Below, one piece after another: positions 9,498-39,582 of a DNA stretch of 64,000 nucleotides (position 1 is the stretch's first letter; every line of letters begins with the position of its first letter). The translations under genes and the position numbers were made by a program. A model generated the notes under the pieces. It ran no database searches, was not told the origin of the DNA, and was given only the letters and a program-made list of their open reading frames with translations. This stretch comes from an uncultured Actinomycetota bacterium (GTDB taxonomy: Bacteria; Actinomycetota; Thermoleophilia; RBG-16-64-13): NCBI GenBank assembly GCA_963803925.1, contig CAWDOM010000005.1:134295-198294 (forward strand). Reading direction: 5' to 3'.

Positions 9498-9519
9498 GCG
9501 TGACTTGGAGGAGATAGAC

Positions 9520-10848: not shown

Positions 10849-10970
10849 GCGACGGATCGCCTACGGGTCAGTGTCGCTCTTTCGGAGTGCCGGCCGGCGC
10901 CGGGCATCGGAGGAGCGACACCGGCCTTCACACGTCGTTCCGTAGTCGCTGAAGGGAGCCAAGGTCCCAC

Positions 10971-14256: not shown

Positions 14257-14268
14257 ACGCAAAGGAGT

Positions 14269-16238: not shown

Positions 16239-16281
16239 CGTGTGCCCTTCGCCGGCAACAAACGAGCAGCGCCGAGCCAGC

Positions 16282-21869: not shown

Positions 21870-21925
21870 GATGTCTCCCGTGCGATCGCTTCGCGTCCCG
21901 AACCCGCACTGTCGCGGGCAACCCG

Positions 21926-22678: not shown

Positions 22679-22724
22679 TGATGCCTCCTATGCCGTCTGT
22701 TCTTGTGGCTGGACGAGCCGGGTG

Positions 22725-23453: not shown

Positions 23454-23503
23454 CTTCTCGTCTCCCTCCAGTCAAATCGGTGTACAAGCGTTCACATCGG
23501 TTA

Positions 23504-23550
23504 TTGACATCCTATCGCAGCTCCTGATAGTTTTGGTGAACAATCGTTAT
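23504..23550 (+). promoter_or_regulatory. Promoter/operator block upstream of TetR paralog 2: TTGACA-N18-TAGTTT-TG-GTGAACAA-TC-GTTAT
   Basis: AT-rich divergent intergenic region between the MBL hydrolase gene and the TetR gene. Conserved with 8574..8619. Confidence 0.45.
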
Positions 23551-23616
23551 AAAGATTCTGGGCGGAGTGGCGTTGGGACGGACACCAGGGGCTTCTGCCG
23601 GGAGGGTCACCGAGCT

Positions 23617-24345
23617 GTGCGCAAGGGCATTCGAGCAACGCGAGAGCAAAGGCAACGTCAGATCGCCGACGTCACGCTGAAGCTGATCGCCCGGTACGGG
23701 GTCCACGGCGCCACCATCTCGCGTATCGCGTCGGGCATCGGACTAACGCGATCGGCTCTCTACAAGTTCTTCCCCAACCGTGAAGCGATGCTCGGGGGGG
23801 CTCTGGATCTCCTCGTGGAGCGGGTACCCCGGTGGATCGACCAATCGTCCGGACGCGACGTCTACGAGCATTTGATGGACATGGGCAGACAACATGCGCC
23901 GCTGGGCCGGGCGGAATTCGAGTCCTTCACCCGGCCCTGGTTCCAGTTCATCGCGGCCAGCAGCGCGGAGCAGATGACCCACGAGCTGGCCAAGCGTCAG
24001 ATGGTCTTCGTTCAAGACTTCGCGATCCTCGTCGAACAGGGGAAGCGCGACGGAAGCATCCGGGAGGATGTGGACAGCAGTCTGGTCGCGTGGGCTCTCA
24101 TGATGTGGGGATGGGCGGACGACGTCGCCCGTCTGGTCGGGCTGGAGCAGGTGATGGGAACCGAGATGTCGATCGAGATCTTCAGGCGCATGCTCGGGGA
24201 CATAGCCGGTCCTTCTCGCGACTCGGGCGGCGCCCGGGACGAGAGAGCAGGCGCCGGAGGGATTGATGGGCGTGATGGGCGTGATGGGCATGGGGTGCGC
24301 CCCGTCGAAGAAAGCGCGACGATCACAACCGACCCACGACCATGA
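23617..24345 (+). CDS. TetR/AcrR family transcriptional regulator, paralog 2
   Basis: GTG start with a GGAGGG RBS 10 nt upstream. HTH ATISRIASGIGLTRSALYKFFPNREAML. The long upstream part of the ORF track (from 23062) is a Pro/Ser/Arg-rich shadow. Confidence 0.75.
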   Translation: MRKGIRATREQRQRQIADVTLKLIARYGVHGATISRIASGIGLTRSALYKFFPNREAMLGGALDLLVERVPRWIDQSSGRDVYEHLMDMGRQHAPLGRAEFESFTRPWFQFIAASSAEQMTHELAKRQMVFVQDFAILVEQGKRDGSIREDVDSSLVAWALMMWGWADDVARLVGLEQVMGTEMSIEIFRRMLGDIAGPSRDSGGARDERAGAGGIDGRDGRDGHGVRPVEESATITTDPRP

Positions 24346-24638
24346 TCTCGCCGGCGTAGCGGCAATCTCACTTCGCCAGCCTTTCTTCGAGCTCAGGAGG
24401 CGCGCCTGCAGGTATCGGATTTCGATCATGCCGTAACGAAACGCGCCAGCAAGAGAGGTGCAACATGAGGAGAGGAACCGCATCCGTAGTAGTGTCAGCG
24501 CTCCCGGCACCTACATCGTCAAGGCCGCCATGGAGCTATCCGAGTAACGCTTCAGGGCTCAGCGACCGCGATCATTCTGTAACTACGACGATGCTTTCCC
24601 GATGCGGCTCCGACACTCGATCGTGACGAATAGGGGTA

Positions 24639-25289
24639 ATGGTGACTACGCACAACGATGCCGGCTTGGCCCTCGACCCATCAAAGACGGCGCTGCTTCT
24701 TGTCCACTGGCAGAACGAGATAGCGGCTCCCAAGGGGCGCAACGCCCAGGACATGGCACAGCGGGTGCGGGAGAAAGGCATCCTGCGACGCACCCAGGCA
24801 GTGCTCGACGCGACCCGTAGGCGTGGGATGCTCGTAGTGTACGTCAACGGAGTGCATGCTCCAGGCTACCCTGAGTTGGGCGCGAGGACCGTGCCACTGG
24901 CAGCCATGCTCATATCGAGGGGCTCGATGCTGAAGGGCACATGGGGAGTCGAGGTCATCGATGAGCTCAAGCCCATCGACGGCGAGATCGTACTCGACAA
25001 CTACTCGTCCAACGGGTTCTGTGCTACACCGCTCGATCTCATACTGCGCAACCACGGCATCAGCGACTTGGTGATCAGCGGCATAGCCACGCACGTCGCG
25101 GTGGAGTCGACCACGCGGGAGGCCTTCCACATGGGCTACACGGTCTACACGCTGGAGGATTGCTGCACCAGCACCACTCAGGAGATCCACGATTGGAGCA
25201 TCAAGAACACGCTCTCGTTCTTCGGCTTCGTGACCAACTCAGGTAGCTACATAGCCGCCATCGGCGCGGCAGACGGCAAGGAGGCGTAG
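24639..25289 (+). CDS. Isochorismatase-family cysteine hydrolase, paralog 1
   Basis: LLVHWQNE, VISGIATHVAVESTTREA and EDCC catalytic-Cys region. Confidence 0.8.
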   Translation: MVTTHNDAGLALDPSKTALLLVHWQNEIAAPKGRNAQDMAQRVREKGILRRTQAVLDATRRRGMLVVYVNGVHAPGYPELGARTVPLAAMLISRGSMLKGTWGVEVIDELKPIDGEIVLDNYSSNGFCATPLDLILRNHGISDLVISGIATHVAVESTTREAFHMGYTVYTLEDCCTSTTQEIHDWSIKNTLSFFGFVTNSGSYIAAIGAADGKEA

Positions 25290-26138
25290 ATGAGCCGGCT
25301 GGATCTCGAGGACAAGGTGGCCCTGGTAACAGGCGCGGCGGGCAAGCGCGGCATGGGCCATTCGGTGGCTCTGCGGCTGGCGGAGCAGGGGGCCGACGTG
25401 GCGGTGCTCGACATCGCGCCGGCGCCGAGGAGCCTCTTCACCGGTGACGACGGCTGGCGCGGGCTCGACGAGGTGGTCGAGGAGATCGAGGCACTCGGCC
25501 GCAGGGGTCTCGCCTTGGTGGCCGACATCAGCAGCAAAGAGCAGACCGCCCAAGCTGTCGAGGCGGCCGCACAGAAGCTCGGCCGGATCGACGTGCTGGT
25601 GCACTGCGCGGGCATGCGCGGCACGCCCAACGTGAACGTAGTCGACGGCGACGAGGACGAGTGGAAACGGATGTTCGACGTGAACCTCCTGGGTTCGTTC
25701 GTCATCGCGAAGCCGGTCGTGGCGCAGATGGTGCGGCAGGGAGGCGGGGGCAAGATCGTGCTCATCGCCTCGCTCGCCGGACGGGAGGGCGTGAAGGGCA
25801 ACGCCGCCTACGCCGCGTCGAAATGGGGTGTCATCGGCCTGGTGCAGAGCCTCGCCAAAGAGACCGCGGCGCACCGGATCAACGTGAACGCCGTGTGTCC
25901 CGGAATGATCATCACCAACCTGCGCGACCACTGGATCGAGGCCGAGGCCAAGCAGGCCGGCACGACCTCGGAGGAGTACCGGCGGCAAGAGTACGAGAGA
26001 GGCGGCAAGATCGTGCCTCTTGGTCGCATGGGCATGCCCGACGACATAGCCGACGTCGTCTCGTTCCTGGCATCGAAGCACTCGGACTACATGACCGGCC
26101 AGTCGCTCAACGTCTGCGGCGGCCTCGTCATGAACTAG
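25290..26138 (+). CDS. SDR family oxidoreductase
   Basis: TGAAGKRGMG; YAASK; starts immediately after the upstream stop codon. Confidence 0.85.
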   Translation: MSRLDLEDKVALVTGAAGKRGMGHSVALRLAEQGADVAVLDIAPAPRSLFTGDDGWRGLDEVVEEIEALGRRGLALVADISSKEQTAQAVEAAAQKLGRIDVLVHCAGMRGTPNVNVVDGDEDEWKRMFDVNLLGSFVIAKPVVAQMVRQGGGGKIVLIASLAGREGVKGNAAYAASKWGVIGLVQSLAKETAAHRINVNAVCPGMIITNLRDHWIEAEAKQAGTTSEEYRRQEYERGGKIVPLGRMGMPDDIADVVSFLASKHSDYMTGQSLNVCGGLVMN

Positions 26139-26275
26139 AGCCGGCCGGACCGCGACCGCACGCCATGAGCAAGCGATCCGGACAGACGACGGTGGTGCGA
26201 GAACTGGCGTTCATCGGCACCGCCTGCGACTGGAACGTGTGTCTTGGAAGATGATCGCACGCAAGGAGAACCACA

Positions 26276-27058
26276 GTGACCAGATCGTTCGAGAACAAAG
26301 TGGCGCTCGTGACCGGGGCGGCAAGTGGTATCGGGCGGGCCGGGGCCGTGGCCTTCGCCCACGAAGGAGCAAGGGTGCTGGTTACGACCGGTTCTAACGT
26401 CGAGGGCGGCGAGGAGACGGTGCGGCTCATCAAGGACGCGGGCGGCGAAGCCTCGTTTCTCAAGGTCGACGTATCCGACGAGGCCGACGTCGAAGAGATG
26501 GTGACGGCCTGCCTGTCTCGCTACGGAGGGCTCGACTTCGCCTTCAACAACGCAGGGGTCGGGCCCGACGGCAGGCGGATCCCATTCTTCCAGATAGTCG
26601 ACATGCCCAAGGACATCTGGGATCACACGCTCGGTGTCAACGTCACCGGCGCCTTCTTGTGCATGAAGCACGAGTTGCGGCACATGATCGCGCAGGGGTC
26701 GGGGGTGATCGTCAACACGTCGTCGGTGCATCCTCTCAAGGCCAAACCGGGCTCGTGCGCGTACATGGCGAGCAAGGCCGGACTCAACGGCATAACCAAG
26801 ACGGCCGCGCTCGAGGCAGCTCCATACAACGTCAGGGTTAACACCATTATGCCCGGGCCCACGGAGGGAACGCTGCTCGTCGACTACCTTACCGCGGCCC
26901 ATCCGGAACGGAAGGCCGACATGAAGCGGGTCGTCCCGCTGCCCCGCCTCGGCAACACCGACGACATGGCGCAGACACTTATCTGGCTCTGCTCCGACGC
27001 CTCCTCCTTCATCACCGGGCAGTGCCTGGCGGTGGATGGAGGCCTCACCGCAGGCTGA
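26276..27058 (+). CDS. SDR family oxidoreductase
   Basis: TGAASGIGRA; NNAG; YMASK. Confidence 0.85.
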   Translation: MTRSFENKVALVTGAASGIGRAGAVAFAHEGARVLVTTGSNVEGGEETVRLIKDAGGEASFLKVDVSDEADVEEMVTACLSRYGGLDFAFNNAGVGPDGRRIPFFQIVDMPKDIWDHTLGVNVTGAFLCMKHELRHMIAQGSGVIVNTSSVHPLKAKPGSCAYMASKAGLNGITKTAALEAAPYNVRVNTIMPGPTEGTLLVDYLTAAHPERKADMKRVVPLPRLGNTDDMAQTLIWLCSDASSFITGQCLAVDGGLTAG

Positions 27059-27099
27059 TGACGGAACGTTACCGACACGCGGTTGAAAGAACACCAGAC

Positions 27100-28254
27100 A
27101 TGAAGATCCCCCAGATCGGCGCCCTGATGGAGACGAGACTGCAGGACCTGGCAGAAGCCCGCGGCCGCGGCACAAAGGTCGTGGGGTATCTCTCCGGCGG
27201 CTTCGTGCCCGACGAGCTCATCTACGCGTCGGGAGCCATCGCGCTCTGCCTCAGCCATGGCGGCGAGGCCCGGGCGACTGAGCGGGCGCTCGCGCTCGTG
27301 CCCAACGTGATCTGCCCGTTCGCCCGCGCCCAGATCGGCGAGACACTGCTGAGGACCAACCCTTTCTACGCTTCGTTGGACTTGGTGGTAGTGCCGACAA
27401 CCTGCCAGCATCTGAAGCAGGCCGGCGATGTGTGGGAGCACTTCGATGTGGTCGACGTCTTCAAGCTGGGCGTTCCCTACGACTGCCAGGACGACTACGA
27501 ACTCGAGTACTACCGAGACAGACTGGCCGAGCTGAAGAGGGCGCTCGAGCGACTCACCGGCACCCTCATCACCGACGACAAGCTGAACGATGCTATCGCC
27601 GTTCATAACCGGCTGCGCGGGCTGCTGAAGACGCTGAGCCTGGCGCGCCGCGGGCCGCGGCCGGCCGTCGACACCCTCGACTTCGTGCGACTGAACCACC
27701 TCTCCATGTATGCCGACCCCGTCAGCACCTGTGCTGTGCTCGAGACTCTCTGCGGCGCGACCGCCGAGCCGCCGGCGCCCGCGGCGAAGAGACCGCGTGT
27801 GATGTTGATCGGGCCCGCCCTCGCCTTCGGCGATTACGACATCATCAGGATGATCGCCGACGCGGGGGCCGACGTGGTGGTCGAGGAGGTGCTCGAGGGC
27901 ATGCGCGACTACTGGCAGGTCGTCGACGGCCCCGGCGATCCGCTCGACCGGCTCGCGAGAAGCTATCTACTCGGCAAGAAGCCGGCCGCGTTCATGAGGG
28001 GCGCGACCCGCAAGAGGCTCGATTTCGTGCTCGATCTCATCGAGGAGTTCGACGTCGACGGCGTGCTCTGGTACCAGCTGCTCTGCTGTGAGCTCTACGA
28101 CGAGGAGTCGTTCCTCTTCGAGAAGGTGCTGCAGAAACGGGGCATTCCCCTGCTGCTGGTCGAGTCCGACTACCACAACCTCGACGCGGGCCCGGTGCGC
28201 ACGCGGCTGGACGCGTTCGTCGAGATCCTACGAGGCGGGCCGGTCGATGCTTGA
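27100..28254 (+). CDS. 2-hydroxyacyl-CoA dehydratase / BcrBC-family (HGD-D) subunit, ~385 aa, pair 2
   Basis: About 65% identical to 16282..17475, with the same Cys motifs (VICPFARA, TCQHLK, LLCCELYDEES). The ORF track begins at 27022; start chosen by paralog alignment. Confidence 0.7.
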   Translation: MKIPQIGALMETRLQDLAEARGRGTKVVGYLSGGFVPDELIYASGAIALCLSHGGEARATERALALVPNVICPFARAQIGETLLRTNPFYASLDLVVVPTTCQHLKQAGDVWEHFDVVDVFKLGVPYDCQDDYELEYYRDRLAELKRALERLTGTLITDDKLNDAIAVHNRLRGLLKTLSLARRGPRPAVDTLDFVRLNHLSMYADPVSTCAVLETLCGATAEPPAPAAKRPRVMLIGPALAFGDYDIIRMIADAGADVVVEEVLEGMRDYWQVVDGPGDPLDRLARSYLLGKKPAAFMRGATRKRLDFVLDLIEEFDVDGVLWYQLLCCELYDEESFLFEKVLQKRGIPLLLVESDYHNLDAGPVRTRLDAFVEILRGGPVDA

Positions 28255-29674
28255 GCTTCTAGAACTCTGCGGATTCGACGACGGAGAACGTCAGGCTCAG
28301 CTCCCCCGAGTGAAGTCGGCCTTCTCGAGGCTGGACCTGACCGAGGACGACATCAAGACGGCCAAGGAGAGGCTCCACCTCTACTACGACATGGAGTTGT
28401 CGGGCGTCAGGATGATGGTGGGCGTCCTTCTGAAGGACATGGTCGATATCGTGCTGCTTCGCGACGAGGGCGCGCGAAAGGTCATCCATTCGTGCATGGC
28501 GCCGGGATTCGAGGTGCTCGGCACGGCCATCAACACGAACTCCGACGACGTTAGGCTGACCTATCCGAACTTCACATTCATGGCGGTCCTCGGGGGTGTG
28601 TTCGGCAGGTTCGTGCCGGTGCTCGAGGCTGCCGAGCGGTTGTGGCTGCGAGGTGGCATCGTGCGCCACTGCGGCATGGTCAAGGCCAGGGTGGGCCTCA
28701 TGAGCTTGGGACTGCACCCCCGGCCCGACCTGACGGTGACCACAGGCTACCTCTGCGACACCAGTCCGAAATCAAACGAGATCATGGAAGCGGTCTTCGG
28801 CATACCGGCGTACTGCGTCGACCATGTGCAAGATCGCCGGTCCGCCGAGTTCCCCGACGGCAGCCGGCTGACCGTGTTGTCTGCCAAAGGCATGCGCAGG
28901 TTCGGCGCCGTCGTGCAGAGAGAGACCGGCCTCGAGGTGACCGACGAGATGTTGTGGCGGGCCATCCAGGCGCGACGGCCCATCGGACAGGCGATGGATC
29001 GAGTGCTCGACGTGATCCGTCTCAACGACCCTCCACCGCTCGGGGCGACTCATCTCAACCTGCTCGCGGCGCTCGGCCGGCCGCCCTACAAGGAGAGTGA
29101 GATTCCGCGGGTGGTGGAAATCCTCGACACGCTCCGCGATGAGTTGGAGAACCGCGTGCGCGGAGGCGTGGGGGCGGTTCCCAAGGGTGCGCCTCGCATC
29201 CTCGTGCTGTGCCCAAACCATCACTCCGACCCCCGCTTCGAGTACCTGTCCAACCGGCTCGGCCTGAACATCGTAGCCTCCGACTTCAACTTCTCCTCGG
29301 GAGAAGACAGGTCGGGCGCGGGCATCGTCGACCCCAACGACCCATACGATGTCATCTGCCAGCATCCTCACGGCACCCCCGGTCAATGTCTGGGGGGGCG
29401 GGCCCATATCATTCTCGACGTCTGCCGGCGCCTCCGCATCGACGGCGTCATCGACCACTACCACGCGGGTTGCAGGTACATGGCCGCCGACACCGTCGCG
29501 CTGCGCGAAACGGTCACCCGGGAACTGGGTATTCCGGTGCTGGCCTATGAATGGGACAACTTCGACCCCCGTTCGTACAACGAGAAGGACCTGGTGGCCA
29601 ACCTCGAGACGTTCTGGGGAATGGTCGAAACGAGTGGCGGCCCAATCCAGCAAGGAGAAAAACGTCATGAGTGA
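28247..29674 (+). CDS. 2-hydroxyacyl-CoA dehydratase / BcrBC-family (HGD-D) subunit, ~475 aa, pair 2
   Basis: ATG at 28247 overlaps the upstream stop by 8 nt. HCGMVKARVG and HYHAGCRY are conserved, but VLGGVFG replaces VLGCMFG of the paralog. The ORF track starts at 28088. Confidence 0.7.
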   Translation: MLELLELCGFDDGERQAQLPRVKSAFSRLDLTEDDIKTAKERLHLYYDMELSGVRMMVGVLLKDMVDIVLLRDEGARKVIHSCMAPGFEVLGTAINTNSDDVRLTYPNFTFMAVLGGVFGRFVPVLEAAERLWLRGGIVRHCGMVKARVGLMSLGLHPRPDLTVTTGYLCDTSPKSNEIMEAVFGIPAYCVDHVQDRRSAEFPDGSRLTVLSAKGMRRFGAVVQRETGLEVTDEMLWRAIQARRPIGQAMDRVLDVIRLNDPPPLGATHLNLLAALGRPPYKESEIPRVVEILDTLRDELENRVRGGVGAVPKGAPRILVLCPNHHSDPRFEYLSNRLGLNIVASDFNFSSGEDRSGAGIVDPNDPYDVICQHPHGTPGQCLGGRAHIILDVCRRLRIDGVIDHYHAGCRYMAADTVALRETVTRELGIPVLAYEWDNFDPRSYNEKDLVANLETFWGMVETSGGPIQQGEKRHE

Positions 29675-30305
29675 AGCCGTGTCGCGCGTTCTCGACCCCC
29701 GCACGACGGCGCTGCTGCTCTTGCACTGGCAGAACGAACTCGTGAAGCCCGGAGGGAAGATCTACGATCCGATGGGTGGCATCCTCGCGGCGGCCGGCAC
29801 CGTGCAACGCACACAGGCCGTCCTCCAGGCGAGCAGGATCCGCGGTGTGTTTGTCGTCTTCGTGAACGTGGGCCACAGGCGCGGGTACCCCGAATTGGCC
29901 CCCGATCCGGGTCCACTGGCGGCAGGTCTTGTCAGGGCGCAGGCGTTCATCAGGGGGACATGGGGGGCCGAAGTCATCGAAGAACTGCGGCCGCTCGATG
30001 ACGAGATCGAGATCGTCAACTACTCCACGAGCGCTTTCATCTACACCGAACTGGACCTTCTGCTCCGCAACCGAGGCATCACGACCGTCGTTCTCTCCGG
30101 CCTCGCGACCAACTGGGTGGTGGAGAGCACCGCGCGAGACGCCGGCAACAGGGGCTACGCAATCTGGACATTGAGCGACTGCTGCAACAGCTCCAGCCAG
30201 GAGGCACACACTTTCTGCTTGACGAACTCGCTCCCCATGCTGGGCGTCGTCTGCGACTCGGCGTCCTACATTCAGGCTCTGAGCGACCCCGGGCCTGAGC
30301 GGTGA
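29667..30305 (+). CDS. Isochorismatase-family cysteine hydrolase, paralog 2
   Basis: ATG at 29667 with an AAGGAG RBS; overlaps the upstream HGD-D gene by 8 nt. LLLHWQNE...LSDCC. Confidence 0.8.
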   Translation: MSEAVSRVLDPRTTALLLLHWQNELVKPGGKIYDPMGGILAAAGTVQRTQAVLQASRIRGVFVVFVNVGHRRGYPELAPDPGPLAAGLVRAQAFIRGTWGAEVIEELRPLDDEIEIVNYSTSAFIYTELDLLLRNRGITTVVLSGLATNWVVESTARDAGNRGYAIWTLSDCCNSSSQEAHTFCLTNSLPMLGVVCDSASYIQALSDPGPER

Positions 30306-30349
30306 GCGCAACGATCTCATCGGTGAACCACGACACAGGAGCCAAGAAC

Positions 30350-31303
30350 ATGCTCGCAGTAACCGGGGCGACCGGCAAAATCGGAGGCAGAGTGGCGGCC
30401 CGCCTCGCGGCACTCGGTCTCGCGCAGAGAATCATCGCGCGCGATCCGTCGAAGTTGCCGGCCCTGCCCGGCGCGGAAGTTCGCCAGGTCTCCTCCTACG
30501 GCGACCCAGTGGGCATGGGAAAAGCCCTCGCGGGAGTCGATACCCTGTTTCTCGTCTCAGCGCGAGAGATCATGGGTGTGATCATGCAGTCCTACGACCG
30601 CAATGAGCCTGTTCCGTACTACGACCGGCTGCACCAGCATATTTGCGCCGTGTCGGCGGCTGCAGCGGTCGGTGTCAGACACATCGTCTACCTGTCGTTC
30701 CTCAACGCCCAGCCCGATGCGACCTTCTTCGCCGCCCGCGAGCACTACCGCACCGAGGAGTTCATCCGCTCGACCGGCGTTGGGTTCACCTTCATGCGCC
30801 AGGGTCTCTACCTGGACAACGTCCCGGCCCATGTGATGAGCGATGACGTCATGCGTGCACCGGCGGGCCAGGGAAGCGTCGCCTGGATCTCACGCGACGA
30901 TATCGCCGAAGCCGTCGTGGCCGTTCTGACGAGCGCAGGCCACGACGGGCAGACATACGACATCTCCGGGCGAGAGGCGCTCACCATGGCTGAGACGGCC
31001 GATTGTATGTCGGCCGTGCTCGGCAGGAAGATCTCGTACCTCGCTCAGACCCCGCACGAGGCGAGGACCAGTCGCAACATGAGCCGGATGATCGATCTCG
31101 AGCTGGCCCGCCGGGAGAAGACGGGCGACAAGCTGACCGAAACCGAGCTTGAGGGATGGATCTCGCACTACCTCGAGATCGCGACCGGAGAGGCCGGCAC
31201 GATCAGCGACGCTGTCTTTCGCCTCACGGGGCGCCCCGCGGAGACGGTAGCGGAATACCTGCAGAACCATCCTGAGAGCTACAGCTACTTGCTGAAGGGT
31301 TAG
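30350..31303 (+). CDS. NmrA-like / atypical SDR NAD(P)-binding protein
   Basis: MLAVTGATGKIGG start with an AGGAG RBS. An alternative GTG start at 30302 overlaps the upstream stop. Confidence 0.7.
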   Translation: MLAVTGATGKIGGRVAARLAALGLAQRIIARDPSKLPALPGAEVRQVSSYGDPVGMGKALAGVDTLFLVSAREIMGVIMQSYDRNEPVPYYDRLHQHICAVSAAAAVGVRHIVYLSFLNAQPDATFFAAREHYRTEEFIRSTGVGFTFMRQGLYLDNVPAHVMSDDVMRAPAGQGSVAWISRDDIAEAVVAVLTSAGHDGQTYDISGREALTMAETADCMSAVLGRKISYLAQTPHEARTSRNMSRMIDLELARREKTGDKLTETELEGWISHYLEIATGEAGTISDAVFRLTGRPAETVAEYLQNHPESYSYLLKG

Positions 31304-31336
31304 CCACATGGGTCGCACGGAGAGGATGGCTCAGTG

Positions 31337-33220
31337 ATGGGCTACGCGCATGTGTTCAAGCCTTTGAGAATCGGCAGGTTCACTGCGAAGAACCGCGTCG
31401 AGTGCGCGCCTGCCATACCCTTTCTCGCCTCGGAGGACTGCTTCGTCACCCGGGAGCTCGTCGAGTGGTACCGGAGCATAGCCAAAGGCGGCGCGGCCGT
31501 CGTGACCATAGGCGAGACGTCGATCGACTACGAGGACGCCCGCTTGCACGGGCGGGCGAACGTGCTCTGCCTGGGCGACAACCGGTCCATCCACGGTCTG
31601 TCGGTTCTTGCCGAGACCATCCAGCGCTACGACGCCCTCGCCTCCATCGAGCTGAACTACGAAGGGCTCCGCGCGCCGACGGACATGACCGCGGGCGAGA
31701 TCGAGACCGTCATCGAGCGTTTCGCCGATGCGGCAGCCCGCTGCAGACATGCGGGCATGGACATGATCATGATCCATGGAGGCCATGGCCACCTGTTGGG
31801 GAGCTTCTTCTCGCCGGTCACCAATAGGCGCTCCGACCGATACGGGGGAAGCCTTCAGAAACGAGCCCGGCTCGCTCTGGAGGTGCTGGAGGCGGTGCGC
31901 AAGAAGACCGGCAACGATGTCGCCATCGAGTACCGGCTGAGCGCCGACGAGTTGACGCCGGGTGCGCCTTCGGTTGACGAAACCATCGAATTCGCCCAGA
32001 TGATCTCGGACAGGATCGATCTGCTGCATGTGTCGGCGGGCAACATCACGGTGCCCAACACCTGTCCCAGGATGATCCCGCCCATATACCTGCCGCGCGG
32101 CACGAACGTGGAGTATGCGGAGCGCTTCAAGCGCGAGCTGAGCGTCCCGGTGACCGCAGTCGGCTCCCTCACCATGGACATGGCCGAGGAGATCATCGCT
32201 CAGAACAAGGCCGACATGGTCGCCATGATCCGCTCCATCATCGCCGACCCCGATTGCGTGGCGAAGGCGAAGACCGGCCGGCACGCGAGCATACGACCCT
32301 GCGTTCGCTGCAACCGCTGCGTCTCCGAGACCCGAGAGTTCACGCGACCCACTCGCTGCACGGTGAACCCCGTCGCGGGCAGGGAGGCGGAATTCGTGAA
32401 CCTGGCGGCGCCGTCGGGCATAAGAAAGGTCGTTGTGATCGGCGGAGGGCCCGCGGGCATGGAGGCCGCGAAAACGGCGGCCGGGCGTGGCCACGACGTC
32501 GTGCTGTTCGAGAAGGATGCCCGCTTGGGCGGAGCCCTCATCCAGGCGTCGGCTCTGTCATTGAAGAACGACATGAAGACCTACCTCAAGTGGGCGGAGC
32601 GGGCGACGGCGCAGACGCCCGGACTCGAGGTCCGGCTCTCGACTGAAGCGACCGTCGACGCCGTCACGGCGGAGCACCCGGACGTGGTGATCGTCGCCCT
32701 GGGCGGCTCTCCCCGCGTACCCGAACTGCCCGGCATCGACCGGCAGAACGTCATGCTGGCGGGCGATGCTCATGCGGACGGCACGAGGACCGGCGACAAA
32801 GTGGTGGTAGTGGGCGCCGGGATGGTGGGCTGCGAGACGGCTCTGGGTCTTGCTCAGGAGGGCGAATCGGTAGTTCTTGTCGACATGCTGCCCCTCGACC
32901 GGATCGCCCTTGACGCTCACCCGATCAGCAGGACGGCCCTCTTCGCCATGCTGAGGAGCGCTTCTGTCGAGATCGAGGCCCAAACGAAGCTCGAAGCCGT
33001 TACCGCAAGCGGTGTGATCGTCAGCCGTGGCGACGGCAGCAGGGCCGAGATCGCCTGCCACTCTGTGGTGCTCGCCACGGGTGTGACACCCCGCCGCGAG
33101 CCGGAGCGGCTCTTCGAGGCCCTTTGCCACGAGGTTCACGTCATCGGCGATTGCAGACGGGCGGGCGGAAACCTGCGCACGGCCATAGCCGATGGATTCA
33201 ATGCGGCAATCGACATATGA
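31337..33220 (+). CDS. OYE / 2,4-dienoyl-CoA-reductase-like FMN + [4Fe-4S] + FAD/NAD(P) oxidoreductase, paralog 3 (intact)
   Basis: 627 aa with MIHGGHGHLLGSFFSP, RPCVRCNRCV and VVVIGGGPAGMEAA motifs. Confidence 0.8.
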   Translation: MGYAHVFKPLRIGRFTAKNRVECAPAIPFLASEDCFVTRELVEWYRSIAKGGAAVVTIGETSIDYEDARLHGRANVLCLGDNRSIHGLSVLAETIQRYDALASIELNYEGLRAPTDMTAGEIETVIERFADAAARCRHAGMDMIMIHGGHGHLLGSFFSPVTNRRSDRYGGSLQKRARLALEVLEAVRKKTGNDVAIEYRLSADELTPGAPSVDETIEFAQMISDRIDLLHVSAGNITVPNTCPRMIPPIYLPRGTNVEYAERFKRELSVPVTAVGSLTMDMAEEIIAQNKADMVAMIRSIIADPDCVAKAKTGRHASIRPCVRCNRCVSETREFTRPTRCTVNPVAGREAEFVNLAAPSGIRKVVVIGGGPAGMEAAKTAAGRGHDVVLFEKDARLGGALIQASALSLKNDMKTYLKWAERATAQTPGLEVRLSTEATVDAVTAEHPDVVIVALGGSPRVPELPGIDRQNVMLAGDAHADGTRTGDKVVVVGAGMVGCETALGLAQEGESVVLVDMLPLDRIALDAHPISRTALFAMLRSASVEIEAQTKLEAVTASGVIVSRGDGSRAEIACHSVVLATGVTPRREPERLFEALCHEVHVIGDCRRAGGNLRTAIADGFNAAIDI

Positions 33221-33271
33221 AGCCGGGAAATAGCCGAGTACATCGTTCAATGCGACGCTAAGGGGTTCGGA

Positions 33272-34723
33272 ATGAGTGAGATACCTGTGCAAGCCGACGT
33301 GGTCGTGGTCGGCTCTGGTGCGGCAGGCATGTCCGCGGCGGTCACCGCCGCTGAGGGCGGAGCGAGGGTAGTCGTCTTCGAGAAGCAGCGGTCTCTGGGT
33401 GGTACCACCAACTTCCTGCACGGCACGTTCGCCGCCGAGAGCGACATGCAACGCGAGCGCTTCATCGATTTCACACGCGATGAGGCCTTCCGGCACATCA
33501 TGGACTACAGCCATTGGCTGGCGAACCCCTGGCTGGTGCGCGCCATCGTCGACGAGTCGGGGGCGACCATACGTTGGCTGCAGGACCGGGGCGTCGTATT
33601 CACCGACGCGACTATCAACATGCTCGGCTGTCCGCGCACGTATCACATCGTGAAGGGCAAAGGCGAATCCATCGTCAAGGCCCTCGTCACCCAGGCGAAG
33701 GGCAAGGGAGCCGAGGTGCTGCCGGGTCTGCCGGTCACCGCGTTGCTGAAGGAGGGCAACCGAGTCACCGGAGTGCTGGTCGACGACGACGGGCAAGAGG
33801 TCGAGGTGGCTTGCAGGGCCGTCATGCTCGCGACCGGTGGCTTCGCCAACAACAAGGATTGGATCAAGAAGTACTGCGGCCTCGAGCTCGGAGTCGACGT
33901 CATACCGATCGGCAACACCGGCAAGATGGGTGACGGCATCCGCATGGCCTGGGAAGCGGGTGCGGCCGAAGAGGGCATCGAGGTACTCGAGGTTTTCCGA
34001 GTGGCTCCCATTGGTCCGGAGTTCTCCGGCTTCTGCGAGCTCGAGATGGCAGCGATGCAACCCGATCTCTGGGTGACCCCCCTCGGCAAGCGGTTCTGCG
34101 ACGAGACCATCGGCTACTGGGACAGCCATGTCGGCAACGCCAACGTGAAGTGGGGCAAGAGCGGCTACACCTGGAGCGTGTTCGACGATTCGATCATCGA
34201 CAAGATTATGCAAGACGGCATCACCAGGAACATCAGCGTGGAGTTCCTGCCGGGACACAAGCCTCAGAACATCCGCAGGGAGATCCAAGCGGCCATCGAC
34301 AACGGGAGCACCGAGGTGGTGGCAGCCGACTCGGTCGAGCAACTCGCCGCGAAGATGGGCGTCGAACCGGCGATGCTGCGGGCGACGGTCGACGAATACA
34401 ACGCCGTCTGTGCAGACCATCGCGACCCGATATTCGCGAAAGACCGCAAGTATCTTCGCCCCCTGACCGGCCCGCGCTACTACGCCGTCAAGGGCCACAC
34501 GGTATTCCTGGGAACTATGGGCGGCATCAGAATCAACGAGAAGACCGAGGTGCTCGACAAGAAGGATATTGTGATTCCCGGTCTGTACGCGGGTGGCTTC
34601 GACGCCGGTGGCATGTACGGAGACAGCTACCCCATCAAAGGATCGTCAGGCCTTGCCTCGGCCTTCGCCCTTGCCTCCGGACGCATCGCCGGCCAGAACA
34701 TGCTCCAGTATCTCGGAACGTAG
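33272..34723 (+). CDS. FAD-dependent flavoprotein, fumarate-reductase / KstD-like (FAD_binding_2), paralog 2
   Basis: VVGSGAAGMSAAV...GTMGGIRIN...GLYAGGFDAGG. Confidence 0.8.
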   Translation: MSEIPVQADVVVVGSGAAGMSAAVTAAEGGARVVVFEKQRSLGGTTNFLHGTFAAESDMQRERFIDFTRDEAFRHIMDYSHWLANPWLVRAIVDESGATIRWLQDRGVVFTDATINMLGCPRTYHIVKGKGESIVKALVTQAKGKGAEVLPGLPVTALLKEGNRVTGVLVDDDGQEVEVACRAVMLATGGFANNKDWIKKYCGLELGVDVIPIGNTGKMGDGIRMAWEAGAAEEGIEVLEVFRVAPIGPEFSGFCELEMAAMQPDLWVTPLGKRFCDETIGYWDSHVGNANVKWGKSGYTWSVFDDSIIDKIMQDGITRNISVEFLPGHKPQNIRREIQAAIDNGSTEVVAADSVEQLAAKMGVEPAMLRATVDEYNAVCADHRDPIFAKDRKYLRPLTGPRYYAVKGHTVFLGTMGGIRINEKTEVLDKKDIVIPGLYAGGFDAGGMYGDSYPIKGSSGLASAFALASGRIAGQNMLQYLGT

Positions 34724-34877
34724 TTGGACTGCCGGGGCGCTGCCTCTGCTCGACAAGATCACATCCGACCTGGACAAAGGAGGTCATCCGGATAGCGATG
34801 TGATGAGGTCGACGCTTGCCGGGCTGCCGAAGAACGAAAGGCGCGTCCTTTCAGCAGCCCGAGGTGGGTTGGGCCGA

Positions 34878-35051
34878 AGCCCGCCCGTGGGGATGACGCT
34901 CTACGTGATCAAAGGCATAGCACGCGACGTTCCCATCGGGACGATCTTCCGAGGAGCCGTTCCCTTCCTTGCGATGGAGATCATCCTCGTGGCGCTGATC
35001 ATCGCCTTCCCCGTCATTGTGACGTTCCTGCCGAGCATCTCGGCAGGATAG
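34878..35051 (+). pseudogene. Remnant 3-prime end (~55 codons) of a TRAP transporter large-permease (DctM-like) gene
   Basis: GMTLYVIKGIARDVPIGTIFRGAVPFLAMEIILVALIIAFPVIVTFLP resembles a DctM C-terminus. The preceding in-frame sequence looks non-coding. Confidence 0.4.
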
Positions 35052-35120
35052 GCGACCGGCACTGGTTTTGACACCGCGATAGGTCAGGAGCGAGCGATTT
35101 CTGAGACGACCGGTTCTACG

Positions 35121-36632
35121 ATGACCGTGCCTTTGCCGGTGCAATCGGAGCTTCAGCGCCGGCGCCACTATGTGCTCACCGTCGTGTCTATGGGCACATT
35201 CATGACCCCCTTCGACAGCAGCATCATCGCAGTGGCGCTGCCGGCGATGGGCGCGAGCCTGCATCTCAACTACTCGTATGCTCTGTGGGCACAGGCGGCC
35301 TACCTCCTCTTGACGACCGCGCTACTCATTCCCGCCGGCAGGATCGCCGATTCGCGCGGACCCATCCGATACAACCTTGCCGGCAACATCGTCTTCGCCC
35401 TCGGCTCAGCGCTGGCCGGACTTGCCCAGAACGGGCTGATGCTGATCGTCGGCCGCTGCGTCCAGGGCGCCGGCGGCGCGTTCATGTTCGCGACTTCGAC
35501 CGGCATCATCACGGCGGTCTTCCCCCGCTGCCAGCGCGGGAGGGCGATCGGCATCAACCTGACGGCGGGGTACGTCGGCCTGATGGCCGGCCCGGCGGCC
35601 GGCGGGTTCATCGTGGCCCGCCTCGACTGGCGCTGGGTGTTCTTCATCAACCTTCCTGTCGCCGTGGCGGTTCTCGCTGCCGGGTGGACACTCATGAGCG
35701 CGGAGCTTCGCGAGCGGCAGGCCGCGTTGATGGCGCACCGGCCGGCGTGTTCCGAGGGCCGTGGTTTCGTTGCTCGGCGTCATGGTAGAACATCGCTCTG
35801 TCTGCGAAGTGCGGATTGGCAGGCCCCCCTCCTGCTTGCGGCGTTTCTCACAGCCCTCTTCCTCCCCTTGACGTTCTCGCCTCTGTGGGGGTGGAGCAGC
35901 GCTAGAACTATCGGCCTGCTGTTGGCCGCCGTCGTGTTTCTGTTCGCGTTCATCGTGAGAGAAGATCGCGCTACGCAGCCGATGCTCGACCTAGACCTGC
36001 TTCGCGGCAATCGCGTCTTTGCGGTGGCCTGCTCGGCAGCCTTCGTCTACTCCGTGGGGATGTTCGCCGCGATCACCCTCACCGCCGTGTATGCCCAAGT
36101 AGTGCAAGGCCGTTCGGCCGAGCAGGCCGGGCTCATGCTCCTGGTGCAACCGGTTCTCATGGTGCTGATATCCCCCATCGCCGGTCGGCTATCCGACCGA
36201 GTGGGCGCGCGGCCCCTTACCGGCCTCGGCGGGCTCTTGCTGAGCGCCGGCATGATCCAGCTGGCCTTGAGCGGAGACTCGGTCGCGCGCATACTTCTCG
36301 GACTCGCCACGGTGGGAGTGGGGATGGCGGTTTTCAGTTCACCCAACATGTCCGCGATCATGGGAGCCGTGCCGCACCATCAGCTGAACCTCGGCTCCGG
36401 CTTCCAGGCGGCGATGCGCTTTGGTGGACAGGGTTTCTCGATCGCGGTGCTGGGCTCGATCGCCGCCTGGAAGCTCGGTCCTCACGGCGCCCACATCATC
36501 TTCTTGGGCGACAGTGCCTCCGCCGTCAGCGCGTCAGACTTCGCCGACGGCTACCAGGCTGCGATGCTGGTCGGCGCCGGACTGACCTTTCTGGCTTCGC
36601 TGCTCTCATGGCTGGCCCGGCCCGCTCGCTAG
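35121..36632 (+). CDS. MFS transporter (DHA2 / EmrB-QacA-like)
   Basis: 503 aa, about 14 predicted TM segments, MFS motifs (GRIADSRG). The central 30 aa are odd, possibly from compensating frameshifts. Confidence 0.7.
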   Translation: MTVPLPVQSELQRRRHYVLTVVSMGTFMTPFDSSIIAVALPAMGASLHLNYSYALWAQAAYLLLTTALLIPAGRIADSRGPIRYNLAGNIVFALGSALAGLAQNGLMLIVGRCVQGAGGAFMFATSTGIITAVFPRCQRGRAIGINLTAGYVGLMAGPAAGGFIVARLDWRWVFFINLPVAVAVLAAGWTLMSAELRERQAALMAHRPACSEGRGFVARRHGRTSLCLRSADWQAPLLLAAFLTALFLPLTFSPLWGWSSARTIGLLLAAVVFLFAFIVREDRATQPMLDLDLLRGNRVFAVACSAAFVYSVGMFAAITLTAVYAQVVQGRSAEQAGLMLLVQPVLMVLISPIAGRLSDRVGARPLTGLGGLLLSAGMIQLALSGDSVARILLGLATVGVGMAVFSSPNMSAIMGAVPHHQLNLGSGFQAAMRFGGQGFSIAVLGSIAAWKLGPHGAHIIFLGDSASAVSASDFADGYQAAMLVGAGLTFLASLLSWLARPAR

Positions 36633-36675
36633 TCACCGTGCCACGTCGAACTCACGCCTCTTGGGTGCCAGCGGC

Positions 36676-38124
36676 CTATCGCCTCAGGTATAGCAGCATG
36701 CTCGTCGCGGCGAGCCGGCCGGAATTGAAGGCGAAGGCCGAAGCCAGGCCGGACGAGCCCTTGATAGGATAGCTGTCGCCATACATGCCGCCCACGTCGA
36801 AACCACCGGCATAGAGGCCGGGGATGGCGATGTCGTCCTTGTTGACGGCCTCCATCTTGCCGTTGACCCTGATGCCGCCCATCGTTCCCAGAAAGACCGT
36901 TCGACCCTTGACCGCGTAGTACCGGGGGCCGAGGAGGGGCCGGAGAAATCTCGGCTCCTTGGCGAACAGACTATCGCGACCAGCCGCACAATAGCCGTTG
37001 TACTCGTCGACGGTGGCCCTCAGCAGTTCGGCATCGGCACCCATCTTCTCGGCCAACTCCCCTACCGAGTCCGCAGCCACCACTTCGCTACTCCCCCGCT
37101 CGAGAGCCGCCTCGATCTCCTTGAACACGTTCACCGGCCGGTAGCCGGGCATGAAGTCCGCCCCGACGTTGTTGTCGACGCCACGCTCGATCATCTCACC
37201 CAGGATCGCGTCGTCCAGGAGGTTCCAGGTGTAACCATCGCGCGCGTACTTCGCGTTCGCGTTGCCGACGTGCGTATCCCAGAAAGCCACCGTCTCGTCA
37301 CAGAAACGCTCCCCGCGCGGCGTCACCCACAGGTCGGGCTGTGCTGAAGCGATCTCGATGTCGTTCCATGTAGCGAAGTCGGGGGCGAGGGGCGCCACCC
37401 TGAAGAGCTCGAGTAGAGCGACACCCTCCTCCGCGGCGCCGGCCTCCCAGGCCATGCGGATGCCGTCGCCCATCTTCGCGGTGTTGCCGATGGGCACGAC
37501 GTCGCGCCCCAATTCGAAGCCACAGTACCGCTTGATCCACTGCGCGTTGTTGGCGAACCCGCCCGTTGCGATCAGCACGGCGTCGGTCGCGACCTCGGTC
37601 TCCTCCCCGTCCACATCGGCCACGACGCCGGCGACACGACCCTCCTCTTTGACCAGCGAGGTGACCGGCGTCTCGGCCAGGATCACCGCTTCGAGGCTCT
37701 TCGCCCTCACGACGAGGGCTTTCACCACGGCCTCGCCTTTGCCCTTGATAACGTGGTACGTTCGCGGGGCTTCGGGCATGTTGATAGTAGCCTCAGTGAA
37801 CACCACACCCCGCTCCCGCAGCCAACCGATGGTGGAGGCCGACTCGTCGATGATGGCCCTGACCAGCCGGGGATTGGCCCGCCAGTGGCTGTAGTCCATG
37901 ATGCTCTTGAAGGCCTGATCGCGCGTGAAGTCGATGTAGCGCTCACGCTGCATGTCGCTCTCCACGGCGAACGTCCCGTGGATGAAGTTCGTTGTGCCTC
38001 CGAGCGAGCGCTGCTTCTCGAAGACGACAACCTTCACCCCAGCCTCAGCTAGCGTGACCGCGGCCGCGAGGCCGGTCGCGCCGCAACCGACTACGACGGC
38101 ATCGGCCCGCGCCGGGACTTTCAT
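36676..38124 (-). CDS. FAD-dependent flavoprotein, fumarate-reductase / KstD-like (FAD_binding_2), paralog 3
   Basis: VVGCGATGLAAAV...GTMGGIRVN...GLYAGGFDVGG. Confidence 0.8.
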   Translation of the reverse strand: MKVPARADAVVVGCGATGLAAAVTLAEAGVKVVVFEKQRSLGGTTNFIHGTFAVESDMQRERYIDFTRDQAFKSIMDYSHWRANPRLVRAIIDESASTIGWLRERGVVFTEATINMPEAPRTYHVIKGKGEAVVKALVVRAKSLEAVILAETPVTSLVKEEGRVAGVVADVDGEETEVATDAVLIATGGFANNAQWIKRYCGFELGRDVVPIGNTAKMGDGIRMAWEAGAAEEGVALLELFRVAPLAPDFATWNDIEIASAQPDLWVTPRGERFCDETVAFWDTHVGNANAKYARDGYTWNLLDDAILGEMIERGVDNNVGADFMPGYRPVNVFKEIEAALERGSSEVVAADSVGELAEKMGADAELLRATVDEYNGYCAAGRDSLFAKEPRFLRPLLGPRYYAVKGRTVFLGTMGGIRVNGKMEAVNKDDIAIPGLYAGGFDVGGMYGDSYPIKGSSGLASAFAFNSGRLAATSMLLYLRR

Positions 38125-39572: not shown

Positions 39573-39582
39573 GCCGAACCTC

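Follow-up and report, generated by a model that had tools for sequence, protein, structure and literature searches.

The window analyzed here is a 64-kb stretch of DNA (G+C 61–67%) from an uncultured Actinomycetota bacterium (contig CAWDOM010000005.1), and the subject of this report is an operon within it that encodes a two-subunit iron–sulfur (Fe–S) enzyme of the HGD-D family (alpha and beta), two isochorismatase-fold proteins (Iso1 and Iso2), and a series of flavin and short-chain reductases. The operon probably reduces an imported cyclic or aromatic acid with a radical Fe–S enzyme and flavin reductases. To the fuller statement, that a conserved block of uncultured anaerobic Actinomycetota encodes the reductive conversion of a cyclic or aromatic carboxylic acid in its free form, with a radical Fe–S step and a trio of reductases resembling that of the equol pathway, we would give about even chances. 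The parts come from known superfamilies, the operon logic is familiar, and nothing in it is categorically new. The combination is unusual: a cluster complement like that of the 2-hydroxyacyl-coenzyme A (CoA) dehydratases (HAD), no linked activator, no CoA-activating enzyme, a carboxylate importer, and isochorismatase-like (Iso-like) and DUF169 partners in three phyla. A literature search found no published description of this combination, in which the importer is a tripartite ATP-independent periplasmic (TRAP) transporter, and nothing relevant on DUF169.

Gene content and conservation of the block

Raw lists of open reading frames (ORFs) of the window are crowded with spurious frames; the coding frame at each locus was selected by analysis of G+C by codon position (GC3) together with Pfam scans. 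The twelve co-directional plus-strand features listed in the first-pass annotation between 23617 and 36632 were borne out by this procedure, with the domains that it had named. The block that is collinear with relatives is larger (21115–36670, ~15.5 kb): the unit begins further left, and the divergent genes at 21177–23453 belong to it. Features of the block and of its right-hand end are as follows; homologous loci are designated by L numbers.

21177–21869, minus strand: conserved protein of unknown family, 230 aa, last gene of the divergent operon; 81–84% identical and syntenic in L001, L002, and L037.
21926–22678, minus strand: DUF169 protein, 250 aa (Pfam PF02596, 105.8 bits); syntenic in relatives.
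22725–23453, minus strand: metallo-beta-lactamase (MBL)-fold hydrolase, lactonase-like, 242 aa (Pfam Lactamase_B, 86 bits); syntenic in relatives.
23454–23616, no strand assigned: MBL/TetR intergenic region, candidate divergent promoter/operator region by its sequence.
23617–24345, plus strand: TetR regulator, 242 aa (Pfam TetR_N); GTG start, GGGAGGG ribosome-binding site.
24478–24544, plus strand: dctP deletion scar, the last ~14 codons recognizable at 24503–24544.
24639–25289, plus strand: Iso1, isochorismatase-fold protein, 216 aa (Pfam PF00857, 123.5 bits).
25290–26138, plus strand: SDR1, classical short-chain dehydrogenase/reductase (SDR), 282 aa (Pfam adh_short, adh_short_C2).
26276–27058, plus strand: SDR2, classical SDR, 260 aa (Pfam adh_short_C2, 208.5 bits).
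27058–28254, plus strand: alpha, Fe–S subunit of the family comprising HAD, benzoyl-CoA reductase (BCR), and double-cubane cluster protein (DCCP), BzdN/HadC-like (Pfam HGD-D, 244.6 bits); likely start at 27100, giving 384 aa.
28247–29674, plus strand: beta, BzdO/MbdO/HadB-like subunit, 475 aa (Pfam HGD-D, 113.1 bits); start set by alignment with the paralog.
29667–30305, plus strand: Iso2, isochorismatase-fold protein, 212 aa (Pfam PF00857, 130.1 bits).
30302–31303, plus strand: NmrA-like NAD(P)H-dependent reductase, 333 aa (Pfam NmrA, NAD_binding_10).
31334–33220, plus strand: old yellow enzyme (OYE)-type ene-reductase with FMN domain, [4Fe-4S] motif, and FAD/NAD(P)H domain, 628 aa (Pfam Oxidored_FMN, Pyr_redox_2).
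33272–34723, plus strand: soluble flavoprotein of the fumarate reductase family (FRD-like), 483 aa (Pfam FAD_binding_2, 182 bits).
34725–34817, plus strand: short DctP-like C-terminal remnant directly 3′ of the flavoprotein stop (tblastn, L002 DctP residues 344–374).
34878–35051, plus strand: DctM C-terminal remnant, the last 57 codons (34878–35048) and stop (Pfam DctM profile positions 368–412 of 413).
35121–36632, plus strand: DHA2-type major facilitator superfamily (MFS) transporter, 503 aa (Pfam MFS_1).

From Iso1 to the FRD-like gene the intergenic gaps are −8 to 137 nt; start and stop codons of neighboring genes overlap, and start codons and ribosome-binding sites are plausible. Terminator-like sites do not exceed the expectation from shuffled sequence (9 vs. 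7.6 ± 3.0), and an Rfam scan of the 64 kb gave no RNA family or riboswitch at the gathering score.

Relatives were found by a homolog search with alpha (74–89% identity, on long metagenome contigs), and further loci by a scan of one genome per GTDB species, with neighborhoods scored by tblastn. The relatives are metagenome-assembled genomes (MAGs) of Microflora Danica; L037 also gives fragmented or partial matches. In at least six uncultured Actinomycetota MAGs (L001/L007, L002, L003–L006, L037, and L038) order and orientation are kept for the genes of TetR, Iso1, SDR1, SDR2, alpha, beta, NmrA, OYE, and FRD-like proteins, in part also Iso2, and for the divergent trio; this agrees with the earlier proposal of one functional unit. 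The layout of the relatives is divergent trio (230-aa protein, DUF169, MBL), TetR, DctP (sometimes with DctQ and DctM), then Iso1 through FRD-like; in some loci DctQ and DctM end the operon.

Amino acid identity to the cluster proteins of relatives is 69–92%. Pairwise synonymous divergence (dS) is 0.7–1.1, near saturation, and the ratio of nonsynonymous to synonymous divergence (dN/dS) is 0.07–0.25, for a set of genes that includes Iso1, Iso2, DUF169, and the 230-aa protein (0.11–0.16) and leaves out the FRD-like gene. Every gene in this set is under purifying selection. The ten enzyme genes run over 10 kb with no frame disruption or premature stop, and their lengths match those of relatives exactly or nearly. 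Gene order that differed among relatives would, by the first-pass annotation, have pointed to an accretion of unrelated oxidoreductases; the order is instead retained over this divergence and purifying selection is seen as well, both of which speak against accretion. In L001 a 63-aa integrase-core fragment (465–656; rve_2/rve_3) lies immediately beyond the left end of the block, which fits a block that has moved between genomic contexts.

Alpha and beta subunits

Both subunits lie above the Pfam HGD-D (PF06050) cut-off of 28.4 bits (alpha, 244.6; beta, 113.1), and are 57% (alpha) and 56% (beta) identical to a second HGD-D pair in the window. The nearest solved structures of alpha are DCCP (6ENO; E 1.9e-39), then BzdN, HadC (E 1.8e-18), and MbdN; those of beta are MbdO, DCCP, BzdO, and HadB. 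In BzdNO, Cys36, Cys73, Cys100, Cys263, Cys293, and Cys327 hold the [8Fe-9S] cluster, and Cys95, Cys128, and Cys380 the catalytic [4Fe-4S] cluster (PMC11971306). By profile alignment alpha keeps only the equivalents of BzdN C73, C100, and C327 (C86, C116, and C344, respectively) and has an additional, family-specific, invariant cysteine, C64; equivalents of C36, C263, and C293, which ligate the distal cubane, are missing, the positions being Gly, Leu/Phe, and Ala in 31 aligned homologs. Beta has three invariant cysteines, C142, C170, and C409, at the positions of the cluster ligands of HadB, BzdO, DCCP, and MbdO. Of the acid/base pair of BzdO, Glu65 and His131, the catalytic His131 is matched by Ser173, three residues after the second cysteine ligand, and the N-terminal region around Glu65 does not align. 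Three cysteines per subunit imply one [4Fe-4S] cubane each, as in 2-hydroxyacyl-CoA dehydratases; by its predicted cysteine ligands the enzyme is neither a double-cubane protein nor a Bzd-type reductase. NCBIfam scores for alpha are 213.4 bits for DCCP (NF040772; cut-off 350), 87.5 for bzdN (453.8), and 88 for HadC (700); for beta, 56.5 for DCCP (NF040772; 350) and 30 for bzdO (448.6).

When the ORFs of 85 loci were clustered, one family consisted, by Pfam, of BcrAD_BadFG ATPases, the genes of which directly follow alpha–beta in 39 of the 85. Single copies accompany archaeal and other DCCP-like single-gene loci and an alpha–beta group at 36% identity, mostly Dehalococcoidales, which also adjoins genes resembling those of acyl-CoA dehydrogenase and carboxyltransferase; pairs of copies, giving the four-gene layout of BCR, occur at 45–50% identity in Dehalococcoidia (L020, L021, L024, L029, L036, and L042) and Spirochaetes (L034). 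With 39 ATPases of the family as queries, tblastn found none in the window at E ≤ 1e-3, nor was an activating ATPase found by tblastn within ±10 kb in the Actinomycetota, Thermoleophilia, or Desulfobacteraceae relatives. The family normally works with an ATP-driven electron activator, the gene of which in this clade is either missing or not linked to alpha–beta. For the radical dehydration or reduction first assigned to the HGD-D pair, the 64 kb thus do not encode the activating ATPase that would normally be needed, a point that the first-pass annotation did not take up.

No AMP-binding or CoA-transferase domain was found in ~60 scanned ORFs of the window, no PS00455 motif in the six frames of the window or of eight loci of relatives, and no CoA ligase signature in the window or in the ±10-kb flanks of relatives. 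The lack of a CoA ligase or transferase, already remarked on for the window, therefore holds for these flanks as well, and it is on this ground that the substrate is read as a free acid.

Isochorismatase-fold proteins and DUF169

Iso1 and Iso2 both exceed the PF00857 cut-off of 27 bits (123.5 and 130.1, respectively) and are 50% identical to each other; the fold and sequence family match those of the structure 3KL2 (E 3.4e-36) and RutB (E 2e-25). Aligned to RutB, biuret hydrolase, and 3KL2, Iso1 has His for the catalytic Asp, Asn for the Lys, and Ala for the nucleophilic Cys; Iso2 has His-Asn-Val in place of the Asp-Lys-Cys triad. The triad is replaced by H-N-A or H-N-V in every ortholog, including the copies that adjoin alpha–beta in Dehalococcoidia (L023 and L039) and in Thermodesulfobacteriota (L040). 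In a database search the triad-less subfamily reached down to ~36–38% identity, and among the matches inspected canonical E/D-K-C members occurred only at ≤36%. Judged from these residues, hydrolysis by the known isochorismatase-fold mechanism, which the first-pass annotation had assigned to both proteins, is excluded. The subfamily is nonetheless functional, since it is under purifying selection (dN/dS ~0.1 for Iso1). Iso2 is present in L003 and L005 and absent from L001 and L002, and its orthologs adjoin alpha–beta in L039 and L040.

The gene for DUF169 lies directly upstream of alpha–beta in Dehalococcoidia (L018, L019, L024, and L027) and beside an Iso-like gene near alpha–beta in L040; Iso-like and DUF169 genes adjoin alpha–beta in three phyla. 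In two further loci (L086, 7231–8615; L087, 4262–5646) DUF169 is followed after 15 nt by a triad-less Iso-like gene, a pair that stands by itself among toxin–antitoxin genes, away from any HGD-D genes; DUF169 and the triad-less proteins may thus cooperate even where the Fe–S enzyme is not involved. A triad-less Iso-like gene also occurs with DctP and FRD-like genes in L089. The AlphaFold model of DUF169 is confident (pLDDT 90.3, pTM 0.87), and Foldseek gave no significant counterpart to it in solved structures (best E 0.23, TM ≤0.24). C47, H66, C68, and C169 are invariant, and this set could bind a metal or an Fe–S center. By exclusion and by genomic association, Iso1, Iso2, and DUF169 are probably ligand-binding or auxiliary partners of the Fe–S enzyme.

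Transport genes

Relatives carry a DctP-type TRAP transporter inside the operon; its genes are intact in L001, and in L002 dctP stands at the front and dctQM at the end. TRAP genes also flank alpha–beta in Desulfobacterota (L013 and L014) and in L008 and L011. The DctP of relatives is a lipoprotein. Against solved structures its best match is only E 1e-27; the best matches, 4PGN, 4PGP, and 4NAP, are binders of indole or aromatic carboxylates, which serves as a lead only. The DctP of relatives keeps the carboxylate-binding arginine (MKGLEIRVPNA, set beside a SiaP reference, MKGLKLRVPNA). In DctP-type proteins this arginine forms a salt bridge with the carboxylate of the ligand (PMC3610893). An unsaturated or cyclic acid, as proposed in the first-pass annotation, is a plausible substrate, the operon of relatives holding a TRAP transporter with this arginine; the steroid and terpenoid variants have no specific support.

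In the window only remnants of these genes are found (24503–24544, 34725–34817, and 34878–35048). At the nucleotide level the match to L002 breaks off at 24478 and picks up again at 24502, leaving out L002 6400–7478, which is dctP; at a second jump, from 34817 to 34878, dctQ and DctM residues 1–377 are deleted. The DctM remnant is 79% identical to residues 378–434 of L002 DctM (tblastn) and, from this match, is read as the scar of the operon's own lost importer. An assembly artifact is unlikely to account for the dctP deletion, because two independent short-read assemblies with identical Iso1 show the predicted gene-free sequence (~375 nt) upstream. The stretch at 34725–34817 is 39% identical to residues 344–374 of L002 DctP (E 4.5e-5, tblastn), and the same DctP-like C-terminal stretch lies 3′ of the flavoprotein in L002 (~16962–17044); these remnants suggest that dctP was once the 3′-terminal gene here.

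The MFS gene (35121–36632) has no counterpart in the clusters of close relatives. It is separated from the FRD-like gene by a 397-nt gap with transporter debris, a gap that is not conserved in relatives. Its product is nearest to the NCBIfam efflux_EmrB subfamily, without reaching the cut-off (183.5 vs. 230 bits); distant MFS genes of the same family adjoin alpha–beta in L030, L032, and L035. Transport by this MFS protein, as first supposed, is doubtful, since the gene lies outside the conserved cluster, the real transporter of which is deleted here. In this genome TRAP can no longer serve for uptake, and the pathway would either use another transporter, perhaps the adjacent MFS, or be at an early stage of loss. 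With its importer deleted, the copy in the window is a poorer experimental start than L001 or L003/L004. Whichever reading holds, the solute-binding protein of relatives offers a direct experimental handle on the substrate.

Accompanying reductases and divergent operon

SDR1 is 82–86% and SDR2 86–92% identical in relatives; SDR1 reaches no NCBIfam equivalog cut-off, and SDR2 has a dN/dS of 0.07. The nearest solved structures of the NmrA-like protein are YtfG quinone oxidoreductase, triphenylmethane reductase, and SimC7 ketoreductase. The OYE enzyme has a CxxCxxC…C motif and the same length (628 aa) in relatives; it is about equally distant from BaiCD (399 vs. 825 bits), bilirubin reductase (396 vs. 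750 bits), and the OYEs of mycofactocin systems, at roughly half of the NCBIfam cut-offs, and its nearest solved structures are 2-naphthoyl-CoA reductase (NCR; 6QKG, E 1.5e-67) and 2,4-dienoyl-CoA reductase (DCR; 1PS9). Steroid, terpenoid, and bile-acid substrates, suggested by likeness to BaiCD, the KstD family, and NCR, were considered and rejected, the scores being about half of the cut-offs or less and nearly equidistant from several families.

For the FRD-like flavoprotein the NCBIfam score is 347 bits for the vinyl phenol reductase VprA (cut-off 600), and the nearest solved structures are Shewanella Fcc3 and urocanate reductase. In a single pairwise alignment with Fcc3 (phmmer) the GKRF motif of the proton-donor arginine is kept, and the positions of HPT, HHTMGG, and NRLGG read as a gap, LGTMGG, and SYPIKG, respectively. 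In Fcc3, His365, His504, and Arg545 are the fumarate-binding residues and Arg402 is the proton donor. Fumarate was rejected as the substrate for the apparent loss of the dicarboxylate-binding residues in this one alignment, which suggests a substrate other than fumarate.

In the divergent operon, the MBL protein has an HLHLDH motif in its translation and is nearest in NCBIfam to AiiA (94 bits) and 4-pyridoxolactonase (82 bits), both far below the cut-offs; the 230-aa protein has no Pfam or NCBIfam match. TetR (23617–24345) shares 80–87% identity with its positional counterparts in L001 and L002, and 72% with a TetR paralog at 8742–9437. The only sigma-70-like site in 21000–37000, TTGACA-16-GATAGT at 23504–23531, lies in the MBL/TetR intergenic region, with a palindrome at 23542–23557. 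The −35 and −10 hexamers and a flanking inverted pair, CGTTCAC…GTGAAC, are kept in the window, in L001 (3535–3665), and in L002 (5386–5556); this is a candidate operator arrangement for TetR.

Comparison with known systems

With class I benzoyl-CoA reductases (BzdNOPQ and MbdONQP) the operon shares the two-subunit HGD-D catalytic module; among heteromeric enzymes the closest to alpha are BzdN/MbdN and the closest to beta are MbdO/BzdO, and beta keeps the three cysteines of the catalytic [4Fe-4S] cluster. It differs from Bzd in that alpha is without three of the six cysteines of [8Fe-9S], Ser replaces BzdO His131, and no genes for the ATPase (BzdPQ/BcrAD), CoA ligase, ferredoxin, or dienoyl-CoA hydratase are present. 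The 2-hydroxyacyl-CoA dehydratases (HadBC with HadI; HgdAB with HgdC) are likewise heterodimers with one three-cysteine [4Fe-4S] cluster per subunit; here, however, there is no adjacent activator and no CoA transferase, similarity is lower than to DCCP or BzdN, and beta has ~45 additional N-terminal residues. HAD-type activators act catalytically, so that their genes need not be linked to those of the dehydratase. In both solved structures and NCBIfam, alpha matches DCCP and DCCP-R (Carboxydothermus; 6ENO) best. The substrates on which DCCP acts are small and carry no CoA (PMC11971306). It is a homodimer from one gene, with six cysteine ligands and an adjacent ATPase, whereas two diverged subunits with three cysteines each and no adjacent ATPase are found here.

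In the equol pathway of Coriobacteriia, DZNR (644 aa), DHDR (286 aa), and THDR (486 aa) convert a free aromatic substrate, with no CoA attached, first by ene reduction, then by keto reduction, and last by deoxygenation (PMC4965515). The likeness lies in an OYE-type FMN/FAD/Fe–S enzyme, an SDR, and an FRD-like protein encoded together (628, 282, and 483 aa here) in the same phylum; the differences are the addition of alpha and beta, two Iso-like proteins, NmrA, and a second SDR, the TRAP transporter of relatives, which implies a carboxylate, and the lack of a racemase in the operon. With the isochorismatase-like cysteine hydrolases (RutB, BiuH, CSHase, and PncA) Iso1 and Iso2 share fold and sequence family, but the triad is replaced across their subfamily, which is tied genomically to DUF169 and HGD-D pairs.

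Proposed pathway and alternatives

The block, which would be catabolic or respiratory, has its TetR repressor between the divergent operon (lactonase-like protein, DUF169, and 230-aa protein) and the tightly packed operon that begins with Iso1 and ends with the FRD-like gene. In the pathway that we propose, a cyclic or aromatic acid would be imported, perhaps as a lactone or to pass through one (the divergent lactonase-like gene), and be reduced stepwise as the free acid. Alpha/beta would carry out the hard step initiated by one electron: it would either reduce a ring or, beside a carbonyl that an SDR has formed, dehydrate or dehydroxylate the substrate by ketyl-radical-type chemistry. For this it would need a low-potential electron, normally delivered by a BcrAD/HgdC-type ATPase, which here must have its gene elsewhere or have a substitute. 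Reduction of C=C and C=O bonds would fall to the OYE enzyme, the FRD-like flavoprotein, both SDRs, and the NmrA-type reductase, following by analogy the logic of daidzein-to-equol conversion: OYE enzyme, then SDR, then FRD-like enzyme.

Several observations weigh against this pathway. To our knowledge, every characterized catabolic member of the HGD-D family acts on CoA thioesters, and CoA esters are likewise the substrates of NCR and DCR, the two solved structures nearest to the OYE enzyme. Electron supply is unexplained, there being no ATPase partner in the 64 kb or within ±10 kb in relatives. No cluster protein reaches any NCBIfam equivalog cut-off, so that no name can be transferred, and the likeness to the equol pathway is one of family and size only. 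The synteny comes from one lineage, only the alpha–beta pair persisting beyond ~60% identity. Finally, the transporter is deleted here and the paralogous neighboring cluster is full of frame disruptions; this copy of the block may be on its way to inactivation.

The main rival, favored by every precedent in the enzyme family and by the nearest solved relatives of the OYE enzyme, is a classical CoA-ester pathway, in which CoA ligase or transferase would be encoded at a distance, alpha/beta would be a 2-hydroxyacyl-CoA dehydratase or aryl-CoA reductase fired by a distant HgdC- or BcrAD-type ATPase, and the OYE enzyme would be a dienoyl- or aryl-CoA reductase. HadBC, BzdNO, and MbdNO all use CoA esters, the OYE enzyme is closest in solved structure to 2-naphthoyl-CoA and 2,4-dienoyl-CoA reductases, the 36%-identity Dehalococcoidales group lies beside acyl-CoA dehydrogenase-like and carboxyltransferase-like genes and an ATPase, and activators that act catalytically need no linkage. 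We nevertheless consider it somewhat unlikely, as no AMP-binding, CoA-transferase, or BcrAD_BadFG gene occurs in the 64 kb or within ±10 kb in close relatives, the other reductases resemble enzymes of free compounds (VprA, urocanate reductase, YtfG, and triphenylmethane reductase), and the catalytic His131 of BzdO is not conserved. A bolder variant of the free-acid pathway, which strikes us as doubtful, makes alpha/beta, Iso1, Iso2, and DUF169 an undescribed radical Fe–S system that would dehydroxylate or dearomatize a free cyclic acid without a dedicated ATP-dependent activator, the electron arriving via DUF169 or via a flavin-based module such as the neighboring NuoF-like/GltD-like pair; hydroxycinnamates, quinate, and shikimate, as plant-derived acids, would be candidate substrates. 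Soil Actinomycetota, Dehalococcoidia, and Desulfobacterota would then possess an anaerobic route that is new.

That the block is a decaying relic, non-functional in this genome and eroding like the paralogous neighboring cluster, we hold to be more doubtful still. Both TRAP loci are deleted, adjacent cluster 2 (8742–21222) has at least 10 frame changes relative to L009, several other genes of the window are split or truncated, and the window is rearranged relative to L010; on the other hand, the ten enzyme genes are undisrupted over 10 kb at lengths as in relatives, dN/dS is 0.07–0.25 (a value averaged over the whole divergence), and the frame changes elsewhere may be errors of long-read assembly. 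A TetR-plus-MFS efflux or detoxification unit, with oxidoreductases that modify a toxic compound and a DHA2 pump that exports it, is very unlikely. TetR regulators are commonly paired with DHA2 efflux pumps, the MFS protein is nearest to the EmrB subfamily, and MFS genes of its family stand beside alpha–beta in L030, L032, and L035, but the clusters of close relatives have uptake-type TRAP instead of MFS, the debris-holding gap of 397 nt parts the MFS gene from the operon, and its product falls below the subfamily cut-off. We give even less credence to an accretion of unrelated oxidoreductases with no common pathway: although the window is unusually rich in SDR, OYE, and FRD-like paralogs and holds rearrangements, the synteny is gene for gene at dS ~1 across six MAGs or more, neighboring genes overlap at their start and stop codons, and in other phyla alpha–beta is again accompanied by Iso-like, DUF169, TRAP, SDR, and FRD-like genes.

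The BCR/2-hydroxyacyl-CoA dehydratase family performs some of the hardest reductions in anaerobic carbon turnover; we know of it only with CoA-ester substrates (DCCP having no known physiological substrate) and with an ATP-driven activator. The clade described here occurs widely among uncultured Actinomycetota, Dehalococcoidia, and Desulfobacterota of soils and sediments. If the free-acid pathway is real, the chemistry of the family is extended, and an unrecognized anaerobic breakdown or respiratory route for plant-derived acids comes into view; if the CoA-ester pathway is, another CoA-dependent aromatic or hydroxy-acid pathway with scattered genes would be at hand.

Neighboring genes in the window

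To the left of the block lies a paralogous operon (8742–21222) for TetR paralog 1, a LIV-type ABC transporter, OYE2, alpha2, beta2, PrpD/MmgE, and SDR3. Homology to L010/L009 runs through it to 21114 and resumes at 36671, from where two FRD paralogs and then a NuoG/GltD-like and NuoF-like pair follow. The block at 21115–36670 thus lies between genes that are adjacent in L009/L010, and the appearance of a "super-cluster" in the first-pass annotation is one of juxtaposition between two other clusters, which in MFD02416 are on a different contig. Relative to L009 the paralogous operon has at least 10 frame changes (permease, ~12321; ATPase, 12860–12969; OYE2, 14260–16235, about five shifts; PrpD, ~19751), at junctions not clearly at long homopolymers; these reflect either pseudogenization or assembly error. 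SDR3 (20299–21222, plus strand) has 307 aa vs. 276 aa in L010 and in a paralog in the window (49364–50194); its extended 3′ end overlaps the convergent gene at 21177–21869, where collinearity with L010 breaks (21114), and the altered C-terminus is probably a by-product of the rearrangement.

To the right (36676–42848, minus strand), the two FRD-like paralogs are followed by a 703-aa fusion of NuoG-like 2Fe-2S/4Fe-4S domains with a GltD-like FAD/NAD(P)H domain and by a NuoF-like protein. The same module accompanies HGD-D genes in L009, L010, and L012 (Desulfobacteraceae), and it may feed in electrons from NAD(P)H, possibly by bifurcation.

As a redox region the window has an unusual wealth of paralogs: four members of the FRD family, 60–67% identical (3035–4582, 33272–34723, 36676–38124, and 38121–39572), six SDRs, and the remains of three OYE/FAD enzymes. 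A tRNA call by ARAGORN at 3692–3774 (minus strand; undetermined type, two-base anticodon), inside a FAD_binding_2 coding region, is almost certainly a false positive. Split or truncated genes lie at 767–2037, 5530–7137, 50256–51789, 56968–59147, and 59849–60397; among them are a PFL-like glycyl-radical enzyme in two pieces with the middle missing, an OYE enzyme without its N-terminus, a split glutamate-mutase-E-like gene, hydantoinase A in three ORFs, and a PrpD fragment. Aldehyde:ferredoxin oxidoreductase (51782–53674) and hydantoinase B look intact.

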